Source: a virus. From it: DNA of 64,000 nt. The notes under the pieces are model-generated. The model did not search any database. It was not told where the DNA came from and was given only the letters and a program-made list of their open reading frames with translations. Numbering within the stretch: position 1 is the first letter of the stretch; each line of letters starts with the position of its first letter. Where the stretch lies: the UHGV virus genome UHGV-0367612. One strand, 5' to 3'. The position numbers and the translations under genes are program-made. This document shows, piece after piece, positions 41,272 to 64,000 of the stretch.

Positions 41272-41700
41272 TTAACTTTCCCATCTCTCTGTTACGAAGA
41301 TGAAATCGGCTGCAAAGGTAACATCTACCCCATTCTCGAAAAATTGACTGATACCTCTTTGACATTGGTACTCATCAAAATCATAATACTCATCTCCATC
41401 TATATCAAAGTCCTCATTAACAGATTCAAATACCCATTGGTGAAAACCATAACCTCTGGCATCATTCTCGAAGGTATCGAAATGACATAACTGCCAATTC
41501 CTATCTCTGAACCATTTGAAGAAATCCTTCCAGTAAATATTGTTTTTCTCCAATTTCCCATTAATTAAAGTGTAACCCGTTATATATTCCCATACTCCGG
41601 TTCTATTCTGAGAATCATTCCGGATGAATCTTTTGATTGCATCCTCTGTAGTCTTCTTTGCTAATTGCAAGCTTAACTGGTTTAAATCTTGTATCTCCAT
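41272..41700 (-). CDS. hypothetical protein
   Basis: 142-aa ORF. Promoter copy at 41723-41759. Confidence 0.35.
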   Translation of the reverse strand: MEIQDLNQLSLQLAKKTTEDAIKRFIRNDSQNRTGVWEYITGYTLINGKLEKNNIYWKDFFKWFRDRNWQLCHFDTFENDARGYGFHQWVFESVNEDFDIDGDEYYDFDEYQCQRGISQFFENGVDVTFAADFIFVTERWES

Positions 41701-41794
41701 ATATTTATTATTAAAAATTATAATGCAAATATATAAATCCTCAGTTTCCTATGCAAATCTCTTGTTACGTGATTAACATGAAAAGAGGCTCATT

Positions 41795-42214
41795 TTACTG
41801 AGCCTCTGGTTTTAGTCCAAATTTAAGATTGAAATCTCTGAGCTTCTCTCGTGCTCTCTCTTTATAAAAGATCTTTTCCCACCATTTTAGTTTCCCAATA
41901 AAGAAATCTAGTATTGGTTGTTGGTTTTTCAATATAACTTTATGTAGCAATGAAAATTGCTCACTAGATAAATCGTGCATGATATTAGCCATAGCCCCTG
42001 TATTGATCCCCAATTTGGTGTACAAACTGATAGAATCTAGGTTGAGGTCTGTCCAATCATCAACTGATATCCCGGGTATAACACATTCTACTGATTTACC
42101 TAAAACCTTTTTATTAGCGGCTGCTATAACCTGAGCCAGAGTTTTAATAACTGCCAACTCATCCTGGTTAAAAGGAGGCCTATTCTTCATCGCTGTCCTC
42201 GGCATAACTTTCAA
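41795..42214 (-). CDS. hypothetical protein
   Basis: 139-aa ORF. Confidence 0.35.
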   Translation of the reverse strand: MKVMPRTAMKNRPPFNQDELAVIKTLAQVIAAANKKVLGKSVECVIPGISVDDWTDLNLDSISLYTKLGINTGAMANIMHDLSSEQFSLLHKVILKNQQPILDFFIGKLKWWEKIFYKERAREKLRDFNLKFGLKPEAQ

Positions 42215-42989
42215 GTTGTTTAAGTGGTTGTGACGTAGTTACCCATTTATTCCATCGTAAATAGAAAGGAGTGGGTTCTTTCTCCGGGTCTCTCTCCATT
42301 TCTCTATACTCTTTCCGGAATCTCTCTTTCTCTTTCTCACTCATGAATTCTGGGAAAATGTGGAGTTTCTGTGTTGTGAAGGATTCTTGAGCTTTTCCTG
42401 GAACCTTGATCTCAAGTGTACCAGTAAATTCTCCAAACCTGTATACTTGGACTTCATCTGTCCTTTTCTTGTATATCTTTATCCCCACTATAATGGTTGG
42501 GTCGAATTTATCTAACATGGGGTTCTTTGATTCTTTGATTAACCGAACCATGTATTGGAACTTGTCTGTTCTCCAATCATCATTCTCCCACTCTACCTTT
42601 TCAAACCTCTCCATTTGGTGAAGTAAATCTCGAGTCACGAATACAAATCCCTGTTCTCGTAAAGCCTTGATTAATTCATCTTGATCCTGAGAACTGTTAA
42701 TGATCTCCATGATCTCTTCTACATAGCTCTCTGAATCTGAATCGATCTTACCAACCTTTTTAGCCTTTTTCTCCTTAGCTTCAAGTGGCAATAACCCGGA
42801 TAACTTCTTGAGATATGTGATAGCTTTCTCCACATCTTCCTGATTATCCATTGTAACCTCAATTCTCATTGGACCGTTGTGGGTAAACTTTGGTCCAGTT
42901 GCAAACTCTGATCCCTGTTTATAGAGTTTATCTGATATGAGCCTTGACTCTTCATCAAATAATTGTACTCTTATTCTTTTCTCTTCCAT
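42180..42989 (-). CDS. hypothetical protein
   Basis: 269-aa ORF. Confidence 0.35.
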   Translation of the reverse strand: MEEKRIRVQLFDEESRLISDKLYKQGSEFATGPKFTHNGPMRIEVTMDNQEDVEKAITYLKKLSGLLPLEAKEKKAKKVGKIDSDSESYVEEIMEIINSSQDQDELIKALREQGFVFVTRDLLHQMERFEKVEWENDDWRTDKFQYMVRLIKESKNPMLDKFDPTIIVGIKIYKKRTDEVQVYRFGEFTGTLEIKVPGKAQESFTTQKLHIFPEFMSEKEKERFRKEYREMERDPEKEPTPFYLRWNKWVTTSQPLKQLESYAEDSDEE

Positions 42990-42990
42990 A

Positions 42991-43287
42991 TTAATATCTC
43001 TTTTTACTAATTACTTTAAAATCTTTTGGATAACCCTCTCTCCATATAATCAACATGGATTGATCCTGAATCTCAGTCTCAATTACTATGAATTTAGTAC
43101 CACTACTGTAAGGAATAATCCATTCTCTTATGGGATTTTTCTGAAATTGGGGGGTTGAATCTCTTTTGGAGTTTACCTCTACTATCGTGTTATCTCTTAC
43201 TATGGGTTTTGAAATATATACCCCCATGAATACCCCTATTAACCAGGATACCACCATTCCGATAATTAAAACTGTTTTGAAATTCAT
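42991..43287 (-). CDS. hypothetical N-terminally anchored protein
   Basis: 98 aa with N-terminal TM 'VLIIGMVVSWLIGVFMGVYI'. Confidence 0.3.
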   Translation of the reverse strand: MNFKTVLIIGMVVSWLIGVFMGVYISKPIVRDNTIVEVNSKRDSTPQFQKNPIREWIIPYSSGTKFIVIETEIQDQSMLIIWREGYPKDFKVISKKRY

Positions 43288-43414
43288 AATCTTAAATTTT
43301 GGTTTGTGGGCTGTTGAGACTCGAACTCAACTAAAAACCACTTTAGCCCTTATAATAAATGGCCAGTTCATTATTAAAATCCCTGGCCATTCCTGAAATT
43401 ATGAAGTTACCTGA

Positions 43415-43945
43415 TTAATCTTCATCTTCCTCTGCCTCAACTTCTTTGGCTTCCTTCTTAGCCTTTTTCTTAGCCTTTTTGTCGGCTTTTGATTCTTTTG
43501 GAGCTTCTTCCGCTTTTTCCTCTTTGGCTTCTTTCTTAGCCTTTTTGGATTTCTTCTCTGCCTTTTCTTCTCCATCTCTGGCTTCTGCCTTCTCAGCTGC
43601 TGCCTTCTCCCGTCTCATTTTTGCCCGCCATTTTTTACGTTCTGCTTTGTCATCCATTCCCTCCGGATACTCATATTTTTGAGCGAATGCACCGGTTCCT
43701 GCAGGTTTCAGTTCTTTGCATTGGTCATTGATATTGTCCAATTCTTCTGAAGCAACATCCACTGCCTTTTGCAGTTTGTCGAATTCTTTGCGGATTTTCT
43801 TGTCTTCGATTTCTTCCGGATCTTTGATTGAGTTCTCTTTCTTAAAAGTTCTCAACTCAGCTTTCGCAGTTTTTAACGTTTCCTTTGCGGTTTCCTTTGC
43901 AGCTTTTGCATCTTCGTAATTCTCAAACTTTTTCATCTTATTCAA
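43415..43945 (-). CDS. Lys/Glu/Ala-rich low-complexity protein (histone H1-like tail)
   Basis: 176 aa. C-terminal sequence 'KKSKKAKKEAKEEKAEEAPKESKADKKAKKKAKKEAKE'. Confidence 0.35.
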   Translation of the reverse strand: MNKMKKFENYEDAKAAKETAKETLKTAKAELRTFKKENSIKDPEEIEDKKIRKEFDKLQKAVDVASEELDNINDQCKELKPAGTGAFAQKYEYPEGMDDKAERKKWRAKMRREKAAAEKAEARDGEEKAEKKSKKAKKEAKEEKAEEAPKESKADKKAKKKAKKEAKEVEAEEDED

Positions 43946-44041
43946 ATTTTAAATTAATATATCCTATCTTTGTATTAACCATTAGTCCTTGACCTTGATT
44001 CTCGTGTTCTAGATGCTCATTATTTTTATTTATTATTTAAT

Positions 44042-44082
44042 TGCAATGCAAATATAATATCCTATAATATCATTTGCAAATC
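44042..44082 (-). promoter_or_regulatory. conserved early promoter copy
   Basis: Plus-strand tgcaatgcaaatataatatcctataatatcatttgcaaatc. Overlaps the last codons of the upstream ORF. Confidence 0.5.
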
Positions 44083-44427
44083 TAAAGTTTCTGAGGTTTC
44101 TATTTTAATCACCTTATAATCAATGATTTCCATTCTGTTTAACAGATACCTAATCTCTGATTCTTTGAGTTTACTCACATAGAGAACTTTATTCTCCCTA
44201 TTATCTCTAGTTGGAATGATCACTTTATAAATATCTTGCAAGCTGATCATCTCTAAAAACTGATCCAGGTAATCTTTGCAAGCTTTTCGGTATTGGTTAT
44301 ACCTTTTGGCGTACATCTCTCCTTTGGTTTGTCCCCGATATTCATCCTCTAACGTGTAGAGATTTCTCTTTTGTTGCATTAGGCTCTCAACTACCAGTTC
44401 GACCCTATTCATCTCTTCTACTCCCAT
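44062..44427 (-). CDS. hypothetical protein
   Basis: 121-aa ORF. Confidence 0.35.
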   Translation of the reverse strand: MGVEEMNRVELVVESLMQQKRNLYTLEDEYRGQTKGEMYAKRYNQYRKACKDYLDQFLEMISLQDIYKVIIPTRDNRENKVLYVSKLKESEIRYLLNRMEIIDYKVIKIETSETLDLQMIL

Positions 44428-45011
44428 TTTAAAATCCTCCTGTGTTTGTATTCATTAGTAATTGCACATTTAATCCTTTTCCTTGGAGTATCTGTTTTCA
44501 GATTATACCTCTTGAAGTTCAGTTTCTCCATGAGAATCACATTCTCACATAGATTGTACATGTATTCGTTTTTACTCACGTCATCAATGAGACTTTCTTT
44601 TAAACCTGACCTGAAAATTTTGATTTTCTCATCTATGGCTTTGGCCATCAATTTCTCAGCTAGTTTAATGGGGTCTCCCTTAACCAACTTATAGTTCTCC
44701 ACTCTATTCTTTAACTTAGTAATGAGCTTGTATACCCCTCCAAAGCTGTAAATAAAGTGAGATACATTATCCTGTAAACCATATACCCGGAAATTCTGGT
44801 CTATTTCCTTTTCCCCAGAATAACCAATAGTGTCCAAGCATACAAGGATAACCCCACATCTGGAAGAACAGAGTTGGGCCAATCCCAACTCCTTTCCCTT
44901 CAACCCATGTTTGAGTTTGAATTCCTTGCATATCATATCTTTGCATACTGGTCTTTGATCCCAGTTTACAGAAGCCTGATATCCTTCAAAATTACTTTTT
45001 AGTTTTTCCAT
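44418..45011 (-). CDS. hypothetical protein
   Basis: 197-aa ORF. Confidence 0.35.
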   Translation of the reverse strand: MEKLKSNFEGYQASVNWDQRPVCKDMICKEFKLKHGLKGKELGLAQLCSSRCGVILVCLDTIGYSGEKEIDQNFRVYGLQDNVSHFIYSFGGVYKLITKLKNRVENYKLVKGDPIKLAEKLMAKAIDEKIKIFRSGLKESLIDDVSKNEYMYNLCENVILMEKLNFKRYNLKTDTPRKRIKCAITNEYKHRRILKWE

Positions 45012-45429
45012 AATAACTATCTGACATTAATTCATGTTCCCATTTCTTAATTACTTTAGCATAACCCATATTGGTTCTCATTAACCAATTAACTTCATCT
45101 CGATGAGATTCTAAATCACATTTAGAATCATCATCTTCATCTGTATCTTCAATCTTTTCCAGTTCCTCATCATCGCAGAATTTTACATCGCAAATGGTAA
45201 TTGGTTTCTCCTCTCCTACATTGGTCATGTTGTAGAATACCTTGTATAAAAGTTTTAGAGAATCGTCTGAAGCCATCAGATTTTCAAGGGTGTGTTCATC
45301 TCCATTAGCTAGGCTACCTATAAAATCCCAAAATAAAATCCGATACCGATAAAACTTGGGTAATCTGGGGATTAAGAAGTCGTATGCTTCCCAACCATCT
45401 TCCCTTCCATAAAATAACTTATTATCCAT
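44992..45429 (-). CDS. hypothetical protein
   Basis: 145-aa ORF. Promoter copy at 45453-45489. Confidence 0.35.
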   Translation of the reverse strand: MDNKLFYGREDGWEAYDFLIPRLPKFYRYRILFWDFIGSLANGDEHTLENLMASDDSLKLLYKVFYNMTNVGEEKPITICDVKFCDDEELEKIEDTDEDDDSKCDLESHRDEVNWLMRTNMGYAKVIKKWEHELMSDSYYGKTKK

Positions 45430-45569
45430 GATAAATGTTTTTAATTATTATATGCAAATATATAATCTCGTTATCTTGTTTGCAAATCCCCATTTACTAA
45501 AATAGGGAGCTTGTTGCTCCCTATTCCAAACATAAAATTCTCTAGGCTGATTTTAAAACTGGCAACAGT

Positions 45570-45995
45570 TTACTTTTTACCTTTCTTTCCTTTTTTCGGA
45601 ACCTCAATATCAAGTTCTTTGGCAATTGCAACCCGGAGCTTCTCAACTTCATCCTCATCATCTTCGTCGTAGTCCTCGACATCGATGTCCTCCAGCTCTT
45701 CATCGTCAACCAATTCGGAAAGTTCGTCGTAATCCATGTCTTTGATGTCGTCCCAGGTATATTCGTCGTCATCATCGTCATCGTCTTCTGGTTCTTCCTT
45801 CTTTGCTGGTTTTTTGGTTTCCTTTTTGTGTTCTTCTTTTTTACCTTTTTTCGGAGCTTCTTCCTCCGGATCCTCTTCATCTGCCAAAGCCTCTGCCAAA
45901 GCTTCCAAGTCCAAATCTTTCACTGCCAAAAGAACTTTCTCTCCATCCTCTTCTCCGAGGAAATGTTTGTCATCAATTTTCTTTACAATTTTCAT
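45570..45995 (-). CDS. extremely acidic protein (possible DNA mimic)
   Basis: 141 aa. Asp/Glu runs ('EDDDDDDDEYTWDD', 'DIDVEDYDEDDEDE') with a short basic KKGKKGKK C-terminus. Confidence 0.4.
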   Translation of the reverse strand: MKIVKKIDDKHFLGEEDGEKVLLAVKDLDLEALAEALADEEDPEEEAPKKGKKEEHKKETKKPAKKEEPEDDDDDDDEYTWDDIKDMDYDELSELVDDEELEDIDVEDYDEDDEDEVEKLRVAIAKELDIEVPKKGKKGKK

Positions 45996-46067
45996 TTTTC
46001 TCTGTTTTTAAGTTATTTAATTAACCTTATATCCTAATTTCAAGGTATATTAGCACTTCCAGTATTT

Positions 46068-46739
46068 TTAATATTCTAGGCTTTTTACTGATAAATCCTT
46101 AGTTACATCCACTGCCTCAATAAATTCCTTTGAGAACATTGTCCAGAGGGATAAGGATAAGTGATATCTGTAAAAAGGTCCGTTGTCATATTTCCATTCT
46201 GTTAATGTTTTAAGGATATTAGTTCCATAGACAAAGTCTTTAAGAGGGACCTTATCCCACTTCCTGGTTTTGGTTCTACCACCACCCAGAAATTCTATAA
46301 TATGTTGGGCTCCTTTTACACTATTTAGCTCTGCCAAATTGGTTGTAAATCCTTCTTTAAATCTGGCTATAAATAAGGGAAGATCGTCCTCTACACACCT
46401 TAACAACCAAACTCGATTCTCCAACCTTGCAGTGGCTTGTCGTTTTCTCCTAACTCTCAACCGTTTACTAGTCCTTTCTGCATGAGCTTTGTCTATAAGG
46501 TTAGAAGGTTTGACATCATTTCTAGCTTCACTTATAAGAGGGAGTTTCCTTACCTCAAATAAGGCCTGATCTAACTTGGTTATTTGATAGCCTGGTTTGA
46601 CTTTGAACTCATAATCCTTGAAATAAACCTTGGCTATCTCCAAAGCCTGTTCCTTGAATTGGAATGGCTTATTGATAATCCCAGGCTTTAAAACATCTCT
46701 AAAGTCTAGGATATAATAATGGAGATACTGTATTTTCAT
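46068..46739 (-). CDS. hypothetical protein
   Basis: 223-aa ORF. Confidence 0.35.
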   Translation of the reverse strand: MKIQYLHYYILDFRDVLKPGIINKPFQFKEQALEIAKVYFKDYEFKVKPGYQITKLDQALFEVRKLPLISEARNDVKPSNLIDKAHAERTSKRLRVRRKRQATARLENRVWLLRCVEDDLPLFIARFKEGFTTNLAELNSVKGAQHIIEFLGGGRTKTRKWDKVPLKDFVYGTNILKTLTEWKYDNGPFYRYHLSLSLWTMFSKEFIEAVDVTKDLSVKSLEY

Positions 46740-47272
46740 CCTTTCGCCTTTCTTTTAGCTTTGTTGTACCATATTCCAATTGATTTAGGTGAAGCATCTG
46801 GGAATTGTTCCAATACTGCTTTCTCAGCTTCTTGTTTACTCATTTTTAACCGGAAACACTCAAATGTTTTGGCTTTTGCAGTTCCAGCCATAACTCCATC
46901 AGATGTTTTCTGTTTCTTTTTTCTCGGAGGTTTTTTACTCATCCCGGCAATCCTCTTCATTTTGATAACCATACCGTCATCATCTCTCTCCCCAATAAAT
47001 CCCAACCTCAATGATGGGTGTATCAATTCTTCTGCATCCTCTCCTAAAGTCATTCGGAGTTGTTTCTCCACCCAATCATCAAAATCATCCAATAATTGAG
47101 GATTCTTGGGTTTGTGTAAGTTCTCTATCCAGAATGAATATAACCGGGGAACATCCGCATCAATTACCTCACTGAAAGGCATACCCCTTACAACGCATTC
47201 TCTTTTAAAATCCTTGATGCTCATCTTATCCGCCTTGGAATAAGCATGGGCTCTTCCCTTATCTTTTGCCAT
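46736..47272 (-). CDS. hypothetical protein
   Basis: 178-aa ORF. Confidence 0.35.
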   Translation of the reverse strand: MAKDKGRAHAYSKADKMSIKDFKRECVVRGMPFSEVIDADVPRLYSFWIENLHKPKNPQLLDDFDDWVEKQLRMTLGEDAEELIHPSLRLGFIGERDDDGMVIKMKRIAGMSKKPPRKKKQKTSDGVMAGTAKAKTFECFRLKMSKQEAEKAVLEQFPDASPKSIGIWYNKAKRKAKG

Positions 47273-47275
47273 TGT

Positions 47276-47617
47276 TTAAAAATCTTCGTGATCAATATCC
47301 TCAACCTCTATTTTATTATCTGGGAATTTATAATTCCAGAAATCCCTATAAACCTTTTTGAAATCCTCATTCTCAGGCCCAACCAATTCTGTGTATACAT
47401 ATAATACCCAGTTTATCTTTGGACAAGGAATCTCATGTACTATCTTATCCACCACCCATTCCCAAAATTCCTTTTGAGTGTTTGAGAATCTGGGAAAACT
47501 TGGAGTGATTTTCTCTAACTCATCCTTAAATAGGTGAGAGAACATGAAAACAAGGTCATCTCTATTTAATTCTCTGATTCCCTTGTAATGCTCTATTAAT
47601 ACTTTACTTGTTGCCAT
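47276..47617 (-). CDS. hypothetical protein
   Basis: 113-aa ORF. Promoter copy at 47643-47684. Confidence 0.35.
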   Translation of the reverse strand: MATSKVLIEHYKGIRELNRDDLVFMFSHLFKDELEKITPSFPRFSNTQKEFWEWVVDKIVHEIPCPKINWVLYVYTELVGPENEDFKKVYRDFWNYKFPDNKIEVEDIDHEDF

Positions 47618-47688
47618 GTTTTATTTATTATTAAATATTAAATGCAATGCAAATATAATAAACTTGTTTTTCTCATGCAAATCCTTTG

Positions 47689-48591
47689 TTACCCTTTTTG
47701 CCCTTGTATCCTCGCAATAACATGTTTTCTGAAAACGTTTACGTTTTCTATCTCCTGGAAGTTGATAGCGTATTGTCTTATATCCCTGAATTTAGGCCAG
47801 AACTTCTGACCTGATTTTGCTGACTTATCCTCAGCTGTCAGGTATTCAACAACCAAGCCAGCAAAGTTATTTGCTAGCGTCTCGTTATCAAATACATATA
47901 AATATAGATGTGAGAGTGCTTTTATATTCTTCTGGGTATATCTAACGGGCACTAAGATATACCCATTTGGAAAATCTAAATGTATTAACGGGAGAAACAT
48001 CTTTTGGTACTTCCCATTATACTCGTATAAATCCTTGATATACTCTATTGAGGCCATTGGGATCTTAGAGATATTCCTTAAATGCTTTGCTTCCCTAGCC
48101 TTATTGCGTCTTTTATATGCTGATGGCTCCTGAAGATTGTCTGGAAGAACTCTGAAATTGTTCCAGGCATCAAACTCCTTGATTAGGTTGTATAGGTCTC
48201 TATCACAATCATTCCTGGATTCCATGAGTTTATCCATACCTTCAGTTATAAGCCTTGTCCTACTCTCTTTGATACTCCACACATCATTATTGAACATCCT
48301 TCTTATAGCTTCCTTCACTGGTAACCTCAACTCCATTACACCTTGGAAATACTCCCTAAAATCTTTACCTACCACTGATTCATCTGGAAATAATTCCCCA
48401 TAGGTTTCATAATGAGTGGTGAACATCTCGAAGAATTTCACACATCTTTTCTGAATCTCCAACAATTTGAAATGGGCTTTCTGAACTATCTCCCCTATCT
48501 CCCATGAAGATTTCCCATGTACAGCTGTTAGGTTTAGAACTAACTTCTCTTCATCTGTCAGTATATTCCAGGCTTTATCATTTTTCTTCAT
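47689..48591 (-). CDS. putative HTH transcription regulator (sigma region-4/LuxR-like helix-turn-helix)
   Basis: 300 aa. N-terminal 'LTDEEKLVLNLTAVHGKSSWEIGEIVQKAHFKLLEIQKR' resembles a region-4-type HTH. Confidence 0.3.
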   Translation of the reverse strand: MKKNDKAWNILTDEEKLVLNLTAVHGKSSWEIGEIVQKAHFKLLEIQKRCVKFFEMFTTHYETYGELFPDESVVGKDFREYFQGVMELRLPVKEAIRRMFNNDVWSIKESRTRLITEGMDKLMESRNDCDRDLYNLIKEFDAWNNFRVLPDNLQEPSAYKRRNKAREAKHLRNISKIPMASIEYIKDLYEYNGKYQKMFLPLIHLDFPNGYILVPVRYTQKNIKALSHLYLYVFDNETLANNFAGLVVEYLTAEDKSAKSGQKFWPKFRDIRQYAINFQEIENVNVFRKHVIARIQGQKG

Positions 48592-49255
48592 AATCCTCTG
48601 TTTCTAGTGATATGGTTGCATAAGCTTTATTTAATTTCCTTTCTCCTACCTCTTCAAATCCATTCTCAAGGTAATCAGTACTGTTCATATCGTAATGATA
48701 CATCGTGTAGTATATATTAAAGAAAGGGACAGTTATCTTGAGTGGTGCTCCGTTAGAGATTTCAACTGCGATAATCATGTTCTGTTTCTCCTTGTTTATT
48801 TTCTCAACTACTCCATATAGTCCCTCAAAGGGATACCCACTCAATTTTATACTGTCCCCAACTTTAATGTTCTCCTCTTGATGTTCACTGTATATAGATG
48901 ACTGGCCTGCATCCCTTATTATACGGTTAACCTCTTTAGAGGAGATCATAGCGTAATTAAAACCCTGACTAGGTAATGTCGTATCTCTCAAGAATCCCAA
49001 CAATATTGGGATTTCTCTTTTCAATTTCACTAAGTAATCTATATCATATCTCCTGAACTTAGGTACCCTCATGAACCCAAAATTAAAGAGGTATGGTACA
49101 TCCTCGTAATTATTTCTTCCCCGGTGTTTTCCCTTGAGAACTCGAGTCACTGGGATAACTATCTCTATCCCATACTCTTTCTCAACTTTCTCTATATCTG
49201 TATCAAGGAATTTATTCCTATCGATATATATGATCATCCATGGCCAGTTTTTCAT
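48578..49255 (-). CDS. NusG/RfaH-like transcription elongation/antitermination factor
   Basis: 225 aa. Clear KOW motif 'IKVGDSIKLSGYPFEGLYGVVEKINKEKQNMIIAVEI' and an NGN-like N-terminal domain. Confidence 0.5.
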   Translation of the reverse strand: MKNWPWMIIYIDRNKFLDTDIEKVEKEYGIEIVIPVTRVLKGKHRGRNNYEDVPYLFNFGFMRVPKFRRYDIDYLVKLKREIPILLGFLRDTTLPSQGFNYAMISSKEVNRIIRDAGQSSIYSEHQEENIKVGDSIKLSGYPFEGLYGVVEKINKEKQNMIIAVEISNGAPLKITVPFFNIYYTMYHYDMNSTDYLENGFEEVGERKLNKAYATISLETEDYEEK

Positions 49256-49267
49256 AAGTTTCTCAGT

Positions 49268-49831
49268 TTAATATATGGATTTACAGTATGGTTTTAGAAC
49301 CTTCTTATGTAAATCCTTGTAGTTTATCTGTTTCAAATCCTCTGAATTTAATATTACCAATCCATAATACATGGACAAGTAAGCAAGTTGCCCGTATTTC
49401 TCCGGGTAAAAATTTAACTCTCTCACTATCTCATTATATAACTCGTTGCTTATGACTACAAAAAAGGTACCCTTTGCCATACCGTTTCTGTGGATGAATA
49501 ACATGGGTACCTTCTGAACAGCTTTAGCATCACTGTTACATTGGTTCCAATAGTGATTTAGCTTATCTGTGTTCTTTCCCTTAGTGGGAAGTAGTAAGTG
49601 TTCAAAGGCTATCTCTTTTGGAGCTTTCACCTCTATACTTATCCTACAATTTCTCTCATGTTTAGCATCTGTACAAATTACATCACCAGCTATAGATTTA
49701 CGATTCTGCCAACGTAATCCACCAGATTGGGGGACCCGAGAGAATTCATACCCAGTCCATTCTTTCATGAACTTAGTAACATCCCTCTCGCATTTATTAC
49801 CTTTGTTTTTACTATTAATCCTTTCAGCCAT
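49268..49831 (-). CDS. putative PD-(D/E)xK-family nuclease
   Basis: 187 aa. 'GDVICTD...ISIEVKA' gives a D...ExK arrangement. Cys-rich. Adjacent to Rad50/Mre11 genes. Confidence 0.3.
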   Translation of the reverse strand: MAERINSKNKGNKCERDVTKFMKEWTGYEFSRVPQSGGLRWQNRKSIAGDVICTDAKHERNCRISIEVKAPKEIAFEHLLLPTKGKNTDKLNHYWNQCNSDAKAVQKVPMLFIHRNGMAKGTFFVVISNELYNEIVRELNFYPEKYGQLAYLSMYYGLVILNSEDLKQINYKDLHKKVLKPYCKSIY

Positions 49832-51748: not shown

Positions 51749-52700
51749 CGTTCAATAGGTCTTTAAGTAATTTTTTACGTTTCTTTCCCTTTTCCCCAAT
51801 ATAACTGGTGTACTCATCCACCATGGATGACCAGTCATTGAGTTTTATCTCATTAGCAATGGCTCCATCCTTTTCCTTAGTCTTGACGACTTTTCTTTTA
51901 ATGTAAATATCAAAATTTTTTCCAGGTTCACCCTCATACCGAAATTCGGGTAGTTCTGCCTTTTCGAAAGTAAAACCATCCCTATCTAATACCCAATACC
52001 CCATATCCGTTCCCATGTCACAGGTTCTCATCTGCATGGGTGACCCACACATTAAAATATTTTTCCGGAGAAGTTGGGGTTTATGTATATGTCCACATAC
52101 TACGTAATCGAAATGTTGGAAGAAGGTACTTAACTTAGTTTGTTTTCCCTTATTCTCGCATTTCATACCGTTAGTATCCTCTGCACCTGGTAATTCCTTG
52201 TGGATAACCAATATTCTGGGTACATCATGTTTACTCCTCTCCACCACTTTCATAGCATTCTCCAATCCCACATCATCTTTAAGATAAGGTATCCCAATCA
52301 CTTCATAAAATATCCCATCCACTGTTGTGAAATCAATACACCTGAAAAATGGATATAACTCTGAAAAAGTTTTGACCCAGCTCGGAGATTTCCTAGGATC
52401 ATCTCCATCCCTATCATGATTCCCAGTTATACAATATACCACTTCTCCACATACCTTCTGATATATGTAGTGGAAATATTCATTCACTAACCTAAAGAGT
52501 TCATTAGACATGTGGCTTGGGTTATGAAAAAGGTCCCCAGCAATGAGGACCTTAGCTTTTTCATCAGAAGCTTTTACAACCAATTTCGAGAACCAATTAA
52601 GTAGCATCTTTGTCCTGTACAAATCTTGGTTAAATGTGTTCCAATCGTGGATGTGTAAATCACCAAGACAGTAGAATTTACTTGTAAGCTTCATAATCAA
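51732..52700 (-). CDS. Mre11/SbcD-like nuclease (T4 gp47-like)
   Basis: Calcineurin-like phosphoesterase motifs 'GDLHIHD', 'AGDLFHN', 'GNHDRDG', 'CGHIHKP'. Confidence 0.75.
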   Translation of the reverse strand: MIMKLTSKFYCLGDLHIHDWNTFNQDLYRTKMLLNWFSKLVVKASDEKAKVLIAGDLFHNPSHMSNELFRLVNEYFHYIYQKVCGEVVYCITGNHDRDGDDPRKSPSWVKTFSELYPFFRCIDFTTVDGIFYEVIGIPYLKDDVGLENAMKVVERSKHDVPRILVIHKELPGAEDTNGMKCENKGKQTKLSTFFQHFDYVVCGHIHKPQLLRKNILMCGSPMQMRTCDMGTDMGYWVLDRDGFTFEKAELPEFRYEGEPGKNFDIYIKRKVVKTKEKDGAIANEIKLNDWSSMVDEYTSYIGEKGKKRKKLLKDLLNDAEIS

Positions 52701-53421
52701 ATTTGTTGTAGGTTATATACTCGTGGAGTCTCACATACTCATCACCTTCAAAGCAACCCACATTCTCAATAATATGAGCTACTGCCAATACTCTATGTTT
52801 AAAATCCTTGGCATCTATCTTGGCACTATAGATGATATTCTTTCTCCCTAAGAATCTCAACTCTCCCCAACTGAAAGGTAATACCTGTTCATGGTAATAA
52901 TGTTTCACGTTCTCCATGAAATACCGGAAATCAAATCCACTGAACAATAGGTTGGATTTTAATTGGTATGACTCATCAGATATCCTTTTACCATCAGCTT
53001 CTGTTTCCCATGAGAAAGGTCTTATCAATCTGATAAAGATTGTCGTGTAGTTGTGATTTTCCAAATCACTTCTCAACATCTCCATACATTTCTCACAGTA
53101 CTCTCTATGTAAAGAATATGGCTTTGGCATATCCATATAATAAATCAGGTTGTCAATGATTGACCTGTCTGTGATAAAGTTTACCTTATCACCCAATACT
53201 TTCTTCCGGTTTTCAAGAATAGCCATTTGGTATTTGTGAGCCCAATTATAATCTCCTGATAACTGGAGAGCATGTTCATGGGATTTTATTCCAAACTCTT
53301 CCCAAACATTGCTGGCAGAAGTGTTCACGTATTCTAAACCAAGTTCTTGGGAAATACATTTAGCCAATGTTGTTTTTCCTAGACCTGATGCTCCGCTGAG
53401 ATAAATTCTTAAAGGTTTCAT
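52678..53421 (-). CDS. P-loop nucleotide kinase (putative dNMP kinase)
   Basis: Walker A 'SGASGLGKTT' at the N-terminus. 247 aa. Sits in the nucleotide-metabolism/replication block. Confidence 0.45.
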   Translation of the reverse strand: MKPLRIYLSGASGLGKTTLAKCISQELGLEYVNTSASNVWEEFGIKSHEHALQLSGDYNWAHKYQMAILENRKKVLGDKVNFITDRSIIDNLIYYMDMPKPYSLHREYCEKCMEMLRSDLENHNYTTIFIRLIRPFSWETEADGKRISDESYQLKSNLLFSGFDFRYFMENVKHYYHEQVLPFSWGELRFLGRKNIIYSAKIDAKDFKHRVLAVAHIIENVGCFEGDEYVRLHEYITYNKFDYEAYK

Positions 53422-58557: not shown

Positions 58558-61500
58558 TTAAGAAGCCTCTTGCAAAGCCACAATTTCCTTATTTTCCCAC
58601 CAATGGTCAATGTAGCAATCTTTATATACTTCTGCATAATCTGTTCCCCTCTTATACCCCTTCAGTTTTGACCACCTTAATCCTAACTCAAAGTCAACTG
58701 CCATTGTGATTCCTTTCAGTTTAAATCCAAAATACTTTTGAGTATCTGGGTCCTTACAGATATTGAATAAGTGGTCTACCACTTCATCATTCATATCCTT
58801 GGGATCAAGGTAGAACATGATAGAGTCATGGATTGTACCTATCTGTTCTATAGATGCTGGTAGTTTACCTTGCATGATTTGCTCTCGGATTAATATACTG
58901 GAGAATAGAGCAAAGTCAGAAGCTGTACCTTGGATAGGGGCATTTACAGCATCACGTAGTGCTTTAGCATACTTACCTTGTTCTCTCTTATTACGTGCTT
59001 CTGGAAGTCTTCTTTTCCTTCCAAACGGAGAAACCACATACCCATGTTCTTCAGCGAATTTCTGTTGTTTCTTTACAAACTTTCTAATTCTTGGGAATGT
59101 ATCAAACCACTCATCCAAGAACTCAATAGCCTCTTCCTTGGTTGCTTTATGATCTGGAGTAGATAGTGATTCTTTCAGGTGATTGGGTCCCTGTTGATAT
59201 AATACCCCAAACCCTATGGTATTTCCAGATAGTACTATCTTATTGTCCTTTCTCACTAATAGGTTATGATCATCTACTGTTACCCCCCACATATCTCTTC
59301 CTCCTTCTGTTTTTGTTAAGATAGAATTATTAAGATCAACTCTAGTAAGATGAGTATCCCTTCTTAAATTATACCCCAAGTGATACCTAGTCCTATCTCC
59401 TACTTTAGTCTCACTGAATGATACCATTATACCATTCATATGTCCCATAGCTTGCATAACTTGAGCAGTCTGTTTCACTACAGTACTGAAAGATACATAC
59501 CCAGTTTTATTACTAATATTTGAATCCCAATATTGAGCTTCTTCTAAGTATATCTTACCGGATATATGGCTTAAACATTCCCAACTTAATTCCTTACCCA
59601 TACTTACCCAGTTAGATAACCACTGATACAACGGTTGGTTAGTTTTCTTTATGATACAGAAGTAATGTTTTCCATTTCTTATAGCTTCTGTATAATCTAT
59701 GTTACATAAAGCTAATAACTCTCTACATCTGTTTGCCTTATGTTCTTTACTAAACCCAAACCTGATCTTTTCCCATTGATTTTTGATATTACCATCAGCA
59801 GTGAACATTGCTAAAAACCTAGTTAAGTTCTCATCCTCAAACTCAAAATTAACTTTACCAGCTACTGGCATATATCCAGACTTATTTACTAGGTTCTTGA
59901 AATCTGTCCTAATCTTTTTCTGGTGTCTTGTTACAAATAAAGTCTTATGAGTAGAAGTTACATCTAAACTTACAGTCCTTGATTTGTAAGTATAATTATT
60001 CTTAGAAATCACCTTACCATAAGCTGAAGGTTTGACCCAGCTTATCTCCTCTGTATCAAAATTATATTGGGCCACCAAGGATTTACCATCGTAAGAATCT
60101 AATCTTTGCCAACCAGTAGGTGTTAATATCTCGGTATCACCTGAATAACATTTAGCTTGTTTTCTCCTTACTTTCCAAGTTTTATAGTTGGGATCATCCT
60201 CGTTAGAGTATATCTTATAAGCATCCTCATAGGATATCTTGTATTTTTTACAAGCTGTAGCCAAGTGAATATCATGTCCAACCCTAAACCATTCAAGCAT
60301 CTGTTTATCCTGTGACCAACCTGCAACTACTCGTAGCTCTGCCTGAGAATAGTCTAACTGCATCATCACTTTCCCTTTCGGACAAACGAACATATATTTA
60401 ATATCCTTTGCCGTAGTATCTCGTGGCATATTCTGCAAGTTGGGGTTCCTTGAACTCAACCTACCAGTAACTGTACCATGTATTAAGAATGAACCATGAA
60501 GAGTGTTATCTGGGTTAAGTATATCTCTGATACCGACTATATAGGTTGAGTAGAGTTTTGTTATCTCTCGATACTTCAAAAGGGTTTCTATAAACCCAGT
60601 CTCATCCTTATCCTTCAACTCTAATAATACATCCTCACTTGTTGCTGGATTCTTGGTGGGTTTCTTGGTTTTCTTATCCTCCGTGTACTTTATGATTGGT
60701 AACCTCAATCCATACTTGTTATAGTATAGGAAGTCAATCAATTGTTTAACTGACTTCAGGTTCAGTGGTTGTAAAGATTCTTTATCTTTCTTTGTTAACC
60801 CAACTCCAGCTGAGTAATTATCATACTTTTTCTGGAGGTTTGTGATACTCCTTTGTAGGCTACCTAGTTTCTTCTTGTCAGTTGTGTTATCTAACTCGTT
60901 AGTCTTTATCTCAATTTGTTCTAGAAGACCATCCAAAAGTGCCTTTTTAGCAGCCTTAACTCTCTTCTTATTATACTTAACAAGAGATGGTACTGCATAC
61001 ATCTTGGCTTCTGCTTCCTCTATCTTGATTTTGTATGATTCACAAAGCCCATCAAGGTATGGTCTATCAACTAGATAACCCCTACTCTCTACTTCTGCTA
61101 GGTTATAAGAAGCCATTTCCAAAAGGTTTCTGTATAACTGGTAGAATCCACATTCTCTAATTCTCTGTTCAAGGTATATTGATAACCGAAGACAGAGATC
61201 AGAGTCCAAAGCATTGTAAGGTGCTAACGTTTCCAACGGTACATTTGACCAGAACTGAACAACCTCTTCTGGAGTTCTCTCAGTATCTTCTCCCTTGATT
61301 GAGTAATTCGCATATTGTGGGAAAAATGAATAAGCCAATGACTTTAAGTCATGTGGTCTTTTCTCATTCAAGAGATACTTCATTAACATGGTATCAAGGA
61401 TAACCCCTCTTGGTCTTATCCCATACTTTAACCACCAACCATGCTCGAATTTAAAGTTGTGTGCTACCTTTACTATCCTGTCATTTTGTATAAGTTCCCT

Positions 61501-61767
61501 ACCTATATATTTTAATACCCTTTTCCACTTATTCCCTTTTCTCAATGGAGAATCTTTATGAGCTAAAGGTATTACATAAGCATACCCAGGTTGGAATGCT
61601 ATAGATATACAAGTAGGATATCCTCTATGATCAGAACTATGATGACCGGATGTCTCATAGTCATGGGCACAATATCCGGTCATCTTGCAGTACTTAACAA
61701 CTTTCTTTACATCGGCCATGGTTTTGGCCCAACTAAAGTGATAGTTATCTAGTACGTCCTTGTTCAT
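58558..61767 (-). CDS. family A DNA polymerase with 3'-5' exonuclease, interrupted by an intein
   Basis: Exo I 'AHDYETSG'. Pol motif A 'LDYSQAELRV'. Motif B is split: 'RRKQAK' [310-aa insert 'CYSGDTEIL ... IVLSGN'] 'TIGFGVLYQQG'. The C-terminal part carries the motif C region. Confidence 0.85.
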   Translation of the reverse strand: MNKDVLDNYHFSWAKTMADVKKVVKYCKMTGYCAHDYETSGHHSSDHRGYPTCISIAFQPGYAYVIPLAHKDSPLRKGNKWKRVLKYIGRELIQNDRIVKVAHNFKFEHGWWLKYGIRPRGVILDTMLMKYLLNEKRPHDLKSLAYSFFPQYANYSIKGEDTERTPEEVVQFWSNVPLETLAPYNALDSDLCLRLSIYLEQRIRECGFYQLYRNLLEMASYNLAEVESRGYLVDRPYLDGLCESYKIKIEEAEAKMYAVPSLVKYNKKRVKAAKKALLDGLLEQIEIKTNELDNTTDKKKLGSLQRSITNLQKKYDNYSAGVGLTKKDKESLQPLNLKSVKQLIDFLYYNKYGLRLPIIKYTEDKKTKKPTKNPATSEDVLLELKDKDETGFIETLLKYREITKLYSTYIVGIRDILNPDNTLHGSFLIHGTVTGRLSSRNPNLQNMPRDTTAKDIKYMFVCPKGKVMMQLDYSQAELRVVAGWSQDKQMLEWFRVGHDIHLATACKKYKISYEDAYKIYSNEDDPNYKTWKVRRKQAKCYSGDTEILTPTGWQRLDSYDGKSLVAQYNFDTEEISWVKPSAYGKVISKNNYTYKSRTVSLDVTSTHKTLFVTRHQKKIRTDFKNLVNKSGYMPVAGKVNFEFEDENLTRFLAMFTADGNIKNQWEKIRFGFSKEHKANRCRELLALCNIDYTEAIRNGKHYFCIIKKTNQPLYQWLSNWVSMGKELSWECLSHISGKIYLEEAQYWDSNISNKTGYVSFSTVVKQTAQVMQAMGHMNGIMVSFSETKVGDRTRYHLGYNLRRDTHLTRVDLNNSILTKTEGGRDMWGVTVDDHNLLVRKDNKIVLSGNTIGFGVLYQQGPNHLKESLSTPDHKATKEEAIEFLDEWFDTFPRIRKFVKKQQKFAEEHGYVVSPFGRKRRLPEARNKREQGKYAKALRDAVNAPIQGTASDFALFSSILIREQIMQGKLPASIEQIGTIHDSIMFYLDPKDMNDEVVDHLFNICKDPDTQKYFGFKLKGITMAVDFELGLRWSKLKGYKRGTDYAEVYKDCYIDHWWENKEIVALQEAS
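59221..60150 (-). mobile_element. intein with LAGLIDADG-type homing endonuclease in DNA polymerase motif B
   Basis: Starts at Cys after 'RRKQAK' and ends 'VLSGN' before Thr. The internal 'LTRFLAMFTADGNIK' is LAGLIDADG-like. Coordinates are approximate (plus or minus 3 nt). Confidence 0.7.
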
Positions 61768-62530
61768 CTTCTATACAATTTTTAAGTATATCCCAATCTT
61801 TCCTGTAAGAGTGGAGTGATGCAATATTATGGTACAGGTATCCAGGTTTTAAATCCTTCATACCCTTTGATCTCAATACCTGGGTAATGTATTCTTTCAA
61901 CTGCCAAGCCAGGAATACATCATTACCAAAGTGAGTTACTACATCCGCTGAACGTTGGTTGTAAATAATATGCAACCTGTTTTCTCGGATAATTAGTTGG
62001 TAATACATTGAGCATGGTACCCTTCTCTTTCCTCCAATATATGCTCCATCATTTTCCAAATCCCAGATAGGTAAAATACCTTGACGAGTATCTGGGTTAC
62101 GGAATAATTCATCTACCACTCTCTCAAGATTACCTACTTCATCTTCCTCTTCTCCACCTGGGCAGAAGTTCATCCTCTCTCCATAGGCATAATCGAATTT
62201 CCCATTTACCAAGAACTCTTCCCAAATCTCTTTTCTGATTTTCCAAGCTTCACCTGGGTTTAATCTTGCAGGATTTACTCTCTCATTAAACTCTGCAATA
62301 GCCCACTTCTTGGTGGTTTCAATATCTGTTTGGGTTCCATTGAAAAGGTACTCTTCTCTGTTCAATGTCAATAAACAGTAAGAGTAATTCAGAATTTCCC
62401 GGGTCTCAAAGTTAATGTCACCTTCAATATTTTTATTCTGCATTGACTTTGGCCTAACTATAGATGACATCTCCCACACCTCACGTCTTATTTCAGACAT
62501 TAACTGATAGCAATCATCGTATATCCTCAT
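61745..62530 (-). CDS. deoxynucleotide hydroxymethylase (T4 gp42 / dCMP hydroxymethylase family)
   Basis: 'RRVPCSMYYQLIIRENRLHIIYNQRSADVVTHFGNDVFLAWQ' aligns with T4 gp42 'FMC(148)TNTVQYLIRDKKINAVVNMRSNDVVFGFRND(179)YAWQ', as recalled from memory. The catalytic Cys and the Asn-Asp pair are both present. Confidence 0.7.
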   Translation of the reverse strand: MRIYDDCYQLMSEIRREVWEMSSIVRPKSMQNKNIEGDINFETREILNYSYCLLTLNREEYLFNGTQTDIETTKKWAIAEFNERVNPARLNPGEAWKIRKEIWEEFLVNGKFDYAYGERMNFCPGGEEEDEVGNLERVVDELFRNPDTRQGILPIWDLENDGAYIGGKRRVPCSMYYQLIIRENRLHIIYNQRSADVVTHFGNDVFLAWQLKEYITQVLRSKGMKDLKPGYLYHNIASLHSYRKDWDILKNCIEDEQGRTR

Positions 62531-62533
62531 CCC

Positions 62534-62890
62534 TTACTCCTCCACCTTTTCGATTGTACCCCAAATATCAATGTCAGTGATAAGTTTGAAAGGCTTTGCA
62601 TCTTTCAATTCTTCACCAACTCTTGTCTTCATCCTCAGTTTCATTTCAACTCCTGAATAATGAGAGAAGATAACCAAATCCCCAATCTTCCAATCCTCAA
62701 CTGCAGAACCAATTCTCACGATTTCTCCAAGTACTGGTTTGTTCTCTTGTGCAGCTCCCGGGATTATGATACCACTTTTTAATATCTCTTCTCCGTCTAC
62801 TACCTCTACTAATACTTTACTTGCCCCAATCTTTGGGATATCAACCTGATCTCTTAATAATGAAATCTTCGCTTTCTTTGTATTTTCCAT
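62534..62890 (-). CDS. GroES-like co-chaperonin (gp31-like)
   Basis: 118 aa. 'SKVLVEVVD...SGIIIPGAAQENKPVLGEIVRIG...KIGDLVIFSHYSG' follows the GroES pattern (mobile loop, GD.V.F). Confidence 0.5.
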   Translation of the reverse strand: MENTKKAKISLLRDQVDIPKIGASKVLVEVVDGEEILKSGIIIPGAAQENKPVLGEIVRIGSAVEDWKIGDLVIFSHYSGVEMKLRMKTRVGEELKDAKPFKLITDIDIWGTIEKVEE

Positions 62891-62936: not shown

Positions 62937-63719
62937 TTATTGACCCGGTAGTTTGCAATTCTTTGCAAGAGTTTTAAGTTTTGCTTTGTAACCAATAAAA
63001 CCATCCTCTGCTATCAATTGCCTACATATCCTTATATGTACTTTATATTTCAGGCTAGAGGCATATTTTTTATCAGTAAACTTTTCAAGCAAGTCTAACA
63101 TCTTGTCTGTTACATCATTCTCTTTACCCTTCACAAGTTTACGTAAATCCTTATGAATGTGGTATCCAGTTAATAACTCGATTGATGACCACATGTTCCC
63201 GCAGAATAAGGTAACTGCCAAGTCTACATCCTTACCATAGATATACTCTCCCATTCTCTGGATAAGTAAGAAGTCAAAGATCAACCTCTTGGTAACTTCT
63301 GAAGACCTGATACTTACTACCATCCTTCTTACATCGTCCTTGTGTCTTTTCTGAAATACCACTGAAAGAAGGCAACCTTTTCCTGAATCGTGTTGGTTAG
63401 AGAATTTGTAAGCTATGTTATATGATCCGGCATTTACTTTCTCTTTGGCTTGTACCTGTGACTTTACTAAATCCAAGTGATTCAGGTCAAGGTAGTTTGC
63501 TATAAGACGAGTCCATTTTTGTTCGTGATACCCAAAAAGCTTAGCAAAATCAAATTCTGGATCAACCCATGCTTTGGTTATATCAAACATCACATCATAA
63601 GCGATGAGTTGTGATGATACTCTAACACCACTCTTGAGTAGCTTTTCGCCACTCAAGATAAGGTATTCATTAATTGCCTCCCATGCTGCCTGTGTAGTTG
63701 GTGCTGTGAATGTAAGCAT
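62937..63719 (-). CDS. hypothetical protein
   Basis: 260-aa ORF. Adjacent to the hydroxymethylase, so possibly nucleotide-metabolism related. Confidence 0.3.
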   Translation of the reverse strand: MLTFTAPTTQAAWEAINEYLILSGEKLLKSGVRVSSQLIAYDVMFDITKAWVDPEFDFAKLFGYHEQKWTRLIANYLDLNHLDLVKSQVQAKEKVNAGSYNIAYKFSNQHDSGKGCLLSVVFQKRHKDDVRRMVVSIRSSEVTKRLIFDFLLIQRMGEYIYGKDVDLAVTLFCGNMWSSIELLTGYHIHKDLRKLVKGKENDVTDKMLDLLEKFTDKKYASSLKYKVHIRICRQLIAEDGFIGYKAKLKTLAKNCKLPGQ

Positions 63720-63720: not shown

Positions 63721-63990
63721 TTAATATTTTGATTGGATTCTGAAGCGATTTACCAAATTCTTCTTGTAATAAATGTGATGCAAACTCTTTGCAGTCATAC
63801 CTGAGAAAGCAAAGAACCCGAACATGTATAGGGTTCCCTCCATCAATCTCAACCGGTAAGTAGATTCATCTGTCATCATTTGGGTTTGCTTCCAAGGTTT
63901 GTTCTTCAGACAATTCCTTGCAATTTGGAATTTGTAAGTGGCTCTCCATAAGAGTTGGCACATTTTCTGATCTCTCTCAATCCCAAGCAA
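63721..63990 (-). CDS. hypothetical protein (5' end probably beyond window)
   Basis: The ORF runs to the window edge. Confidence 0.25.
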   Translation of the reverse strand: MLGIERDQKMCQLLWRATYKFQIARNCLKNKPWKQTQMMTDESTYRLRLMEGTLYMFGFFAFSGMTAKSLHHIYYKKNLVNRFRIQSKY

Positions 63991-64000
63991 GTTACCACCA

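Follow-up and report, generated by a model that had tools for sequence, protein, structure and literature searches.

We analysed TS1 and TS2, two genes that encode thymidylate synthase (TS)-fold proteins in a 64,000-nucleotide stretch of virus genome UHGV-0367612 (hereafter the window). The two recur together in phages of three bacterial phyla, and we hold with moderate confidence that they are a conserved pair of enzymes making a modified cytosine nucleotide. The best explanation of our results is a pathway in which TS homologs modify cytosine before replication. Phages are known to escape restriction and CRISPR systems by having TS homologs modify pyrimidines ahead of replication, and the established products of such homologs on cytosine carry a methyl, hydroxymethyl or hydroxyl group. 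The window represents a tailed-phage genome (GC content 36.8%) that encodes a tail sheath, major head protein, portal, protease and terminase. A preliminary description of it had predicted hydroxymethyl-pyrimidine DNA. Pre-replicative modification of cytosine remains the best reading of that claim, whereas a hydroxymethyl group is plausible rather than predicted and a C5 methylase homolog speaks against total replacement.

Family and active site of TS1

The TS1 open reading frame (ORF) has the position, length and motifs first described, and encodes a divergent member of the TS superfamily with a short C-terminus. In the search proposed in the preliminary description, TS1 scored 58.1 bits against Pfam PF00303 (Thymidylat_synt; gathering threshold 24.3). 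Placement with canonical ThyA was not borne out, as TS1 fell below all NCBIfam ThyA equivalog cut-offs (best scores 49.8 against 174.6 for TIGR03283 and 27.1 against 108.4 for TIGR03284). HMMER aligned its motifs 'VPCSMYYQ', which holds Cys173, and 'YNQRSADVVTHFGNDVFLAWQ' with 'FMCTNTVQ' and 'NMRSNDVVFGFRNDYAWQ' of T4 deoxycytidine monophosphate (dCMP) hydroxymethylase (dCH). This enzyme was the best PDB sequence match to TS1 (1b49, E 1.4e-8), followed by a bacterial thymidylate synthase (6auj, E 2.5e-7). The alignment to T4 dCH, previously called block-for-block, holds over TS1 residues 128-247, whereas the N-terminal half is alike at the fold level only.

An AlphaFold2 model of TS1 built with 48 homologs had a TS fold (predicted local distance difference test, pLDDT, 93.9). 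Foldseek matched the model to MilA, TS and T4 dCH with template modelling (TM) scores of 0.61-0.76; MilA was on top (TM 0.75) and AfhB was the third-best match. A profile of the TS1 family gave near-equal scores to the characterised enzymes, with 55.5 bits for T4 gp42, 50.3 for RB69 gp48, 49.2 for SPO1 gp29, 48.6 for the Xp12 TS homolog and 43.7 for Escherichia coli ThyA. TS1 therefore forms its own clade outside any gp42 clade, with no specific link to T4 gp42 (55 bits, against 44-50 for the other TS relatives). TS1 is genuinely related to thymidylate synthase and of the cytosine type, but it is not a hydroxymethylase of the T4 kind.

A few positions, given here in E. coli numbering, predict what a TS homolog does (PMC13326640, PMC8670742). 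Cys146 is the nucleophile, and position 147 is His in ordinary TS. Position 177 is Asn in enzymes acting on uracil and Asp in those acting on cytosine; 143 is Leu in methyl-forming and Asp or Glu in hydroxymethyl-forming enzymes; at 169, folate enzymes have Asp and the flavin-dependent 5-hydroxy-dCMP synthases have Asn. D169N is the diagnostic substitution of the verified 5-hydroxy-dCMP synthases (PMC13326640), and an association study of metagenomes linked Asp at 177 strongly to cytosine modification in phage DNA (PMC8670742). We took reference genes from the T4, SPO1, RB69 and Xp12 genomes and aligned them with TS1 using MAFFT (Table 1); the E. coli ThyA sequence in the residue alignments was entered by hand. 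MilA, whose sequence is outside this alignment, has Asp at position 143 (PMC13326640).

Table 1. Residues at predictive positions (E. coli numbering) and length of the C-terminal tail in TS1 and reference enzymes
Enzyme	143	147	169	173	177	Residues after Tyr209
E. coli ThyA	L	H	D	G	N	55
Window ThyA	L	H	D	G	N	86
Xp12 TS homolog (5-methylcytosine, 5mC, DNA)	N	P	D	G	D	61
SPO1 gp29	D	N	D	G	N	157 (long unrelated extension)
T4 gp42	D	T	D	G	D	28
RB69 gp48	E	T	N	V	D	12
TS1	R (R170)	S (S174)	D (D196)	H (H200)	D (D204)	19

The alignment recovered the published rules for the known enzymes except Xp12, whose residue 143 is Asn and thus not hydrophobic. The rule that a hydrophobic residue such as L143 marks methyl formation is thus imperfect, and tail length divides the classes better: 8-35 residues follow Tyr209 in the TS1 clade, against 55-86 in E. 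coli ThyA, the window ThyA and Xp12.

Conservation was counted over 178 distinct members of the TS1 family. R170, P172, C173, R193, S194, D196, H200, D204 and H240 are invariant in all of them, down to 31% identity, a sign of purifying selection, as is the invariance in TS2 described below. The equivalents of Cys146, Arg166, Ser167, Tyr94 and Glu58 (C173, R193, S194, Y116 and E80) are likewise invariant or near-invariant. Asp204 aligns with T4 Asp179 and E. coli Asn177, both with HMMER and in two alignments made with MAFFT, confirming the earlier statement that this Asp is kept. By its residues, TS1 is thus of the cytosine type (D177) and of the folate type (D169, not D169N). The TS C-terminal tail seals the active site for hydride transfer, and its loss prevents hydride transfer in T4 dCH (PMC6400193). 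D177, D169 and the absent C-terminal lid together argue for non-reductive one-carbon transfer onto dCMP by TS1, which we predict to be a dCMP-specific, folate-type C5 one-carbon transferase of a distinct clade.

The active site of TS1 also departs from that of T4 dCH. According to a study of T4 dCH in its ternary complex, the substrate water is activated by Asp145, which precedes the catalytic Cys by three residues and cannot be replaced by Asn without loss of activity (D145N), while another catalytic water is held by Ser94, located two residues ahead of Tyr96; Asp/Glu at Cys-3 and Ser/Thr at Tyr-2 were proposed there as a hydroxymethylation signature (PMC6400193). TS1 lacks this experimentally defined signature, which weighs against hydroxymethylation by the T4 mechanism. 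The position of Asp145 is Arg170 in 178 of 178 sequences, with an equivalent Arg in the cultured phages CPD4, P744, Serbin, PMBT14, Muddy and Zuko. The position of Ser94 is Tyr114 in 176 of 178 and His in the TS1 homologs of Proteobacteria and Actinobacteria phages, which keep the same Arg and His200. Since SPO1 gp29 also lacks Ser/Thr at Tyr-2, having Ala, that residue is a trait of the T4 family. His200 stands where the characterised enzymes aligned have Gly or Val. In E. coli TS, twelve residues lie no more than 6 A from C5, and positions 143 and 173 are both among them; the TS1 clade has therefore swapped the known water-activating apparatus for another strictly conserved polar set. Activation of water would need other residues than in T4; His might act as the base for a water nucleophile, or another nucleophile may take the place of water. 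With Asp145 and Ser94 replaced by Arg170 and Tyr114, hydroxymethyl is a plausible product of TS1, not a predicted one.

These residues bear on the orthodox T4-type explanation, in which TS1 would be a plain 5-hydroxymethyl-dCMP synthase, virion cytosine would be fully 5-hydroxymethylcytosine and TS2 would be a structural or regulatory partner without chemistry. T4 dCH is the best PDB sequence match of TS1 and shares D177, D169 and the short C-terminus, and a gp56-family pyrophosphatase, a kinase-like gene and a separate canonical ThyA, as in T4, accompany TS1. Nevertheless, we regard this explanation as decidedly unlikely. Arg stands in place of the essential water-activating Asp145 and Tyr or His in place of Ser94, the TS1 profile is about equidistant from T4 gp42, RB69 gp48, SPO1 gp29 and the Xp12 enzyme, the invariant catalytic-type Cys, Arg and Asp of TS2 (195 sequences) would be unexpected in a passive partner, and the phage has a conserved C5 DNA methylase. 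The identification of TS1 as a gp42-like hydroxymethylase in the preliminary description is therefore not upheld, as the defining residues are absent and the profile scores other TS relatives nearly as well.

TS2 and the conserved gene module

The preliminary description was right to point to the ORF now called TS2 as a candidate missing component; it encodes a second TS-fold protein. TS2 is highly divergent. It had no Pfam match (PF00303 included) and no NCBIfam match, and the PHROGs of the two TS2 families, 34294 and 13667, are both labelled 'unknown function'. Its AlphaFold2 model (pLDDT 91.2) has a TS fold, with AfhB as the best structural neighbour, and settled its assignment as a putative TS-fold enzyme. 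By eye, the invariant 'GKGC116L' and 'R138-S-S-E141...D149' resemble TS catalytic motifs, and in an hhalign comparison of TS2 with the TS1 family the catalytic motifs were in register, although the match was not significant (P 0.06). Cys116, Arg138, Glu141 and Asp149 fall at TS catalytic positions 146, 166, 169 and 177. Cys116, Arg138 and Asp149 are invariant in 195 of 195 distinct homologs, down to 16% identity; Glu141 is found in 190 of these and Asp in the other five, and actinophages have Tyr. Position 143 is Gly or Met. An exhaustive profile search among 1.84 billion proteins gave 198 cluster representatives at E <=1e-3, so the TS2 family is modest in size.

TS1 relatives are encoded on 313 IMG/VR contigs, of which we fetched 80 and scanned them together with the window, the 98%-identical 83.8-kb contig L003 and Clostridium perfringens phage CPD4, for a total of 83 loci. 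In 82 of these, TS2 is found upstream of TS1 and in the same orientation, and 80 have a family-A polymerase downstream of TS1. An all-alpha nucleoside triphosphate pyrophosphatase (PPase) is present in 78 loci, the missing ones being at contig ends, and 53 have a kinase-like gene within 10 kb of TS1. The order PPase, TS2, TS1, PolA on one strand is found in about 80 IMG/VR loci.

The same module occurs in cultured phages. CPD4 encodes the PPase (gp73), TS2 (gp74) and TS1 (gp75), followed by Pol I. The order in Yersinia phage P744, Serratia phage Serbin and Pseudomonas phage PMBT14 is kinase, PPase, TS2, TS1, dCMP deaminase and Pol I. Mycobacterium phage Muddy has a kinase (gp49, matching PHROG 761 at 2e-22), PPase (gp48), gp47, TS1 (gp46), dCMP deaminase (gp45) and Pol I (gp44), and Streptomyces phage Zuko has the same module order. 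Muddy gp47 and Zuko gp75 match TS2 in a profile-profile comparison (P 2.5e-4), with the equivalents of Cys, Arg166 and Asp177 aligned. The TS1 signature (R143, C146, S/T147, D169, H173 and D177) is identical in all cultured carriers aligned. Two GenBank records name their copy 'pyrimidine hmase synthase'.

Table 2. Features of the TS1 and TS2 module and other genes of the window relevant to cytosine and thymine nucleotides
Feature	Coordinates	Strand	Description
TS1	61745..62530	-	261 aa; divergent TS-superfamily enzyme with short C-terminus
TS2	62937..63719	-	Highly divergent TS-fold protein; PHROG 34294
PPase, C-terminal part	63721..64000	-	All-alpha NTP pyrophosphatase; ORF cut by the window end; Pfam family of T4 gp56 (dCTPase/dUTPase)
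GroES (Cpn10)-like co-chaperonin	62534..62890	-	Between TS2 and TS1; Pfam Cpn10 40.9 bits
Family-A DNA polymerase	58558..61767	-	Directly downstream of TS1, overlapping its end; Pfam DNA_pol_A 244 bits and a 3'-5' exonuclease domain
P-loop NMP-kinase-like protein	52678..53421	-	247 aa; candidate kinase for a modified dNMP
Canonical ThyA	23745..24809	+	354 aa; Pfam 238.6 bits; TIGR03284 240 bits (cut-off 108); L143, C146, H147, D169, N177
C5-cytosine DNA methyltransferase homolog	20593..21603	-	Pfam PF00145 57 bits (cut-off 22)

The presence of the PPase overturns the earlier statement that no dCTPase was recognisable (Table 2). The full-length protein, 261 aa in L003 (L003:7461-8246), scored 28.1 bits against Pfam dUTPase_2 (cut-off 22.9), compared with 44.6 for CPD4 gp73 and 25.4 for T4 gp56. 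The part within the window matches PHROG 12184 'nucleotide pyrophosphohydrolase' (E 3.4e-15), and BLASTP aligned the last 49 residues of the protein to the gp56 C-terminus (E 3.4e-4). By these matches, the PPase is a member of the gp56/dimeric-dUTPase family, with dCTP and dUTP as putative substrates. In about half of the gut-phage loci (L083, 6940..7494, and 41 others), a 184-aa gene of the trimeric dUTPase/dCTP-deaminase family (PF00692) lies just upstream of the PPase. Such phages have two unrelated (d)NTP-hydrolysing enzymes beside the TS pair.

The kinase-like protein matched the 'thymidylate kinase' PHROGs 2107 (6.6e-13, residues 1-176) and 761 (2.7e-6). It scored 36.8 bits against Pfam AAA_28, above threshold, and 18 bits against Pfam dNK. 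Its Walker A motif, D85-R86-S87 and lid residue Arg146 are conserved in 44 homologs. The nearby kinase of the preliminary description therefore exists as a P-loop ORF that resembles nucleoside monophosphate (NMP) kinases, while its assignment as a kinase is weak; a role as deoxynucleoside monophosphate (dNMP) kinase is plausible from these matches. The family-A polymerase is the presumed user of the modified deoxynucleoside triphosphate (dNTP).

The GroES-like gene changes position between loci, being downstream of the polymerase in other relatives, and hence probably plays no part in the chemistry. The cassette is also an insertion hotspot. An HNH homing endonuclease lies between GroES and TS1 in L003 (9433..10017) and another upstream of the PPase in L094 (1599..2093), and a canonical ThyA is inserted between PPase and TS2 in L051 (7203..8120). 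The window polymerase has 1069 aa, against 759 aa in L003. The difference is an insert of about 310 aa that starts with 'CYSGDTEILTP' and divides the Pfam DNA_pol_A match into two stretches; it resembles an endonuclease-bearing intein. A second intein is probably present in the large terminase subunit (17193..19655, minus strand, 820 aa), which has an HNH_3 endonuclease domain and an intein-splicing match of 32.6 bits, just under the Pfam cut-off.

Cytosine in the rest of the genome and alternative explanations

As first described, a ThyA-family gene is present elsewhere in the window. It is a canonical ThyA that supplies thymidylate (dTMP), so TS1 and TS2 are extra paralogs. This ThyA is unusually long, with some 50 aa inserted behind the Trp80 region, and has Tyr for Arg127 and Asp for His207 at positions that contact dUMP.

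One alternative is that TS1 is a dCMP methyltransferase like the Xp12 enzyme, and that its 5-methyl-dCMP either enters 5mC DNA or is deaminated as an alternative route to dTMP, leaving canonical DNA. D177 and D169 are common to TS1 and the Xp12 TS homolog, the non-hydrophobic Asn of Xp12 at 143 means that Arg there is no bar to methylation, and dCMP deaminases are part of the module in Serbin, PMBT14, Zuko and Muddy. The tail argues the other way. It seals the active site for hydride transfer (PMC6400193), and Xp12 keeps it in full (61 residues) together with an adjacent dihydrofolate reductase (DHFR), while only 8-35 residues are left in the TS1 clade and the scanned window ORFs and flanks contained no recognisable DHFR. 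We therefore consider methylation by TS1 very unlikely.

We also see little chance that TS2, or TS1, is a flavin-dependent 5-hydroxylase like RB69 gp48 and HY126 AfhB that makes 5-hydroxy-dCMP as a handle for decoration. AfhB ranks third among the Foldseek matches of TS1 and is structurally the nearest neighbour of TS2; D177 and a C-terminus that is short or unlike that of TS occur in TS1 and TS2 alike. However, neither has D169N, with Asp invariant in TS1 (178/178) and Glu, or Tyr in actinophages, in TS2. No sugar-nucleotide or glycosyltransferase genes accompany the module in the ORFs and flanks scanned.

The C5-cytosine DNA methyltransferase homolog of the window raises a different difficulty. 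It aligns to M.HaeIII and keeps the motif IV Cys ('GAPDCG') and an ENV-like motif. A pattern-based IMG/VR search for it gave nothing; a homolog search then found it to be common in the lineage, with at least 500 homologs whose identity decays as in TS1 and which lie on contigs of the same lengths as the TS1 and TS2 carriers. It always lies near the terminase, adjoining it in L093 too, and a related phage of the pig gut, MT121964, has it as well. From this distribution, we take the methylase to be a core gene of this gut-phage lineage, outside the module in other lineages. A C5 methylase requires unsubstituted C5, so either the replacement of cytosine is incomplete or the homolog acts non-canonically.

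The conserved methylase, which argues against complete C5 substitution of cytosine, is one of several further points that weigh against the proposed pathway. The fold search could not assign TS1 as hydroxymethylase, hydroxylase or TS, since MilA, AfhB, TS and T4 dCH all matched at E 1e-15 to 1e-13; the structural comparison first suggested thus matched T4 dCH with its TS fold, though no better than the other classes. The role given to TS2 in the pathway is conjectural. The kinase-like protein matches solved kinases over the P-loop only and has weak similarity to the in-module kinases of CPD4, P744 and RB69 (E ~1e-4). No glycosyltransferase or other enzyme using a hydroxymethyl group was found in the scanned window ORFs or the conserved flanks, in agreement with the preliminary description as to glycosyltransferases. 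In the literature searched on the C. perfringens phages, P744, Serbin, PMBT14 and Muddy, we found no report of DNA composition.

The scan for decorating enzymes and DHFR covered the window ORFs, with some small ones left out, and the recurrent flank families; carbamoyltransferases, DHFR and other decorating enzymes were not recognised among these. About twelve ORFs of 160-300 aa at ~36000..49300 on the minus strand, such as 42180..42989, 47689..48591 and 46068..46739, had no Pfam or PHROG match and could conceal further components of the pathway.

Another alternative is a module that leaves DNA unmodified. On that account, it only reshapes nucleotide pools, for example through extra turnover of dTMP or dCMP or through depletion of dCTP against host processes, and virion DNA is canonical except for site-specific 5mC from the phage methylase. 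The conserved C5 methylase implies unsubstituted cytosines, the genomes assemble normally from ordinary metagenomes, and downstream decorating enzymes were not found in the scanned ORFs and flanks. We still think this account highly improbable. Two extra TS-fold paralogs with the cytosine-type Asp beside a canonical ThyA are hard to explain by it, as is the tight coupling of the module to the replicative polymerase in three host phyla, and Asp177 is tied to cytosine-modified phage DNA in metagenomes (PMC8670742).

Nucleotide composition did not discriminate. GATC is avoided in the window (observed/expected 0.52, z ~-8), which might have spoken against protection of cytosine. This signal is uninformative because T4 (0.39) and RB69 (0.14), with fully modified cytosines, avoid GATC too. 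CpG is depleted in the window (0.39), its gut relatives (0.34-0.44), CPD4 (0.10) and P744 (0.47), but not in PMBT14 (1.0) and only weakly in Serbin (0.77), so depletion tracks lineage or host and not the module. These biases probably reflect lineage or host. GCGC occurs once in the 64 kb of the window.

Proposed pathway and relation to known systems

From the residues, gene order and distribution described above, we infer the following substrates, cofactor and product for the pre-replicative modification of cytosine. The PPase would convert dCTP (and dUTP) to the monophosphate. TS1 would bind dCMP, with Asp204 reading and protonating the cytosine. Cys173 would then attack C6, and the methylene of 5,10-methylene-tetrahydrofolate would join C5 with the help of the retained Glu80, Tyr116 and Asp196. 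Because TS1 lacks the C-terminal lid for hydride transfer, the exocyclic-methylene intermediate would not be reduced to methyl and would instead be trapped by a nucleophile. The likeliest nucleophile is water, which would give 5-hydroxymethyl-dCMP. Trapping would involve Arg170, His200 and Tyr114 instead of T4 Asp145 and Ser94, and with this different catalytic set another 5-(X-methyl) product is possible. The product could thus be 5-hydroxymethyl-dCMP or another 5-substituted dCMP. TS2, which keeps the equivalents of Cys, Arg166, Glu169 and Asp177, may further convert this nucleotide or make a second C5-substituted dCMP. The kinase and the host nucleoside diphosphate kinase would yield the triphosphate, and the polymerase would incorporate it into DNA, where it may replace cytosine to a limited or a larger extent.

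A bolder version, which we consider unlikely, has TS1 and TS2 perform two successive TS-type reactions on the free nucleotide, leading to a cytosine derivative undescribed in any virus. TS1 would add a one-carbon unit to dCMP, with Arg170 and His200 positioning a nucleophile other than Asp-activated water. TS2 would re-form the exocyclic-methylene intermediate and attach a different group, and within the gut-phage lineage the base, once in DNA, might undergo additional processing by the protein with the C5-methylase fold. If so, the same chemistry would operate in phages of Firmicutes, Proteobacteria and Actinobacteria, including Muddy.

Among known systems, T4 is one of the closest parallels to the module. 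T4 gp42 shares with TS1 the TS fold, the catalytic Cys, the Glu58-type acid, Tyr94, Arg166/Ser167, Asp169, Asp177 and the truncated C-terminus. The T4 set of gp56 dCTPase, gp42, gp1 dNMP kinase and cd dCMP deaminase is paralleled by the PPase, TS1, the kinase-like protein and, in many carriers, a deaminase. T4 and the window phage both have a separate canonical ThyA. In contrast to T4 gp42, TS1 has an invariant Arg for Asp145, Tyr/His for Ser94 and an invariant His for Gly175. T4 further differs in its family-B polymerase, where the module has family A, in its glucosyltransferases, none of which were found with the module, and in having no additional paralog of the TS2 type.

The remaining TS homologs each share part of the TS1 features. 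RB69 gp48, DLP3 gp80 and HY126 AfhB (PDB 9iqc/9iqu) resemble TS1 in their TS fold, Asp177 and short C-terminus, and are phage-encoded and pre-replicative. These 5-hydroxy-dCMP synthases combine D169N with Glu at 143, whereas TS1 has Asp and Arg and TS2 has Glu/Tyr and Gly/Met, and their arabinose/sugar-nucleotide cluster was not found with the module. The Xp12 TS homolog, a presumed dCMP methyltransferase, resembles TS1 in Asp177, Asp169, a non-hydrophobic residue at 143 and its location near a dCMP deaminase and a family-A polymerase. Unlike TS1, it has a long TS tail, a neighbouring DHFR and Gly173, and no TS2 partner. SPO1 gp29 (a dUMP hydroxymethylase) and MilA (a CMP hydroxymethylase) share the TS fold and non-reductive one-carbon transfer. 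They differ from TS1 in that SPO1 gp29 has the uracil-type Asn177 and, in the alignment, Asp at 143, and in that MilA acts on a ribonucleotide in antibiotic biosynthesis.

The strategy itself is known; the window carries a widespread variant of it, a module of two TS-fold enzymes with a distinct active-site signature. The signature of TS1 lies outside the published predictive rules, and the obligatory second TS-fold enzyme goes unrecognised by Pfam, NCBIfam and PHROGs. The module appears to represent a fourth, widely distributed branch of TS-homolog cytosine chemistry. Hundreds of gut-phage contigs carry it, as do phages that are easy to grow, among them Muddy, which has been used in phage therapy; the identity of the base is therefore directly testable. 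The identity of the product bears on phage engineering, on sensitivity to restriction enzymes and Cas nucleases, on sequencing accuracy and on the annotation of TS-like genes in viromes.

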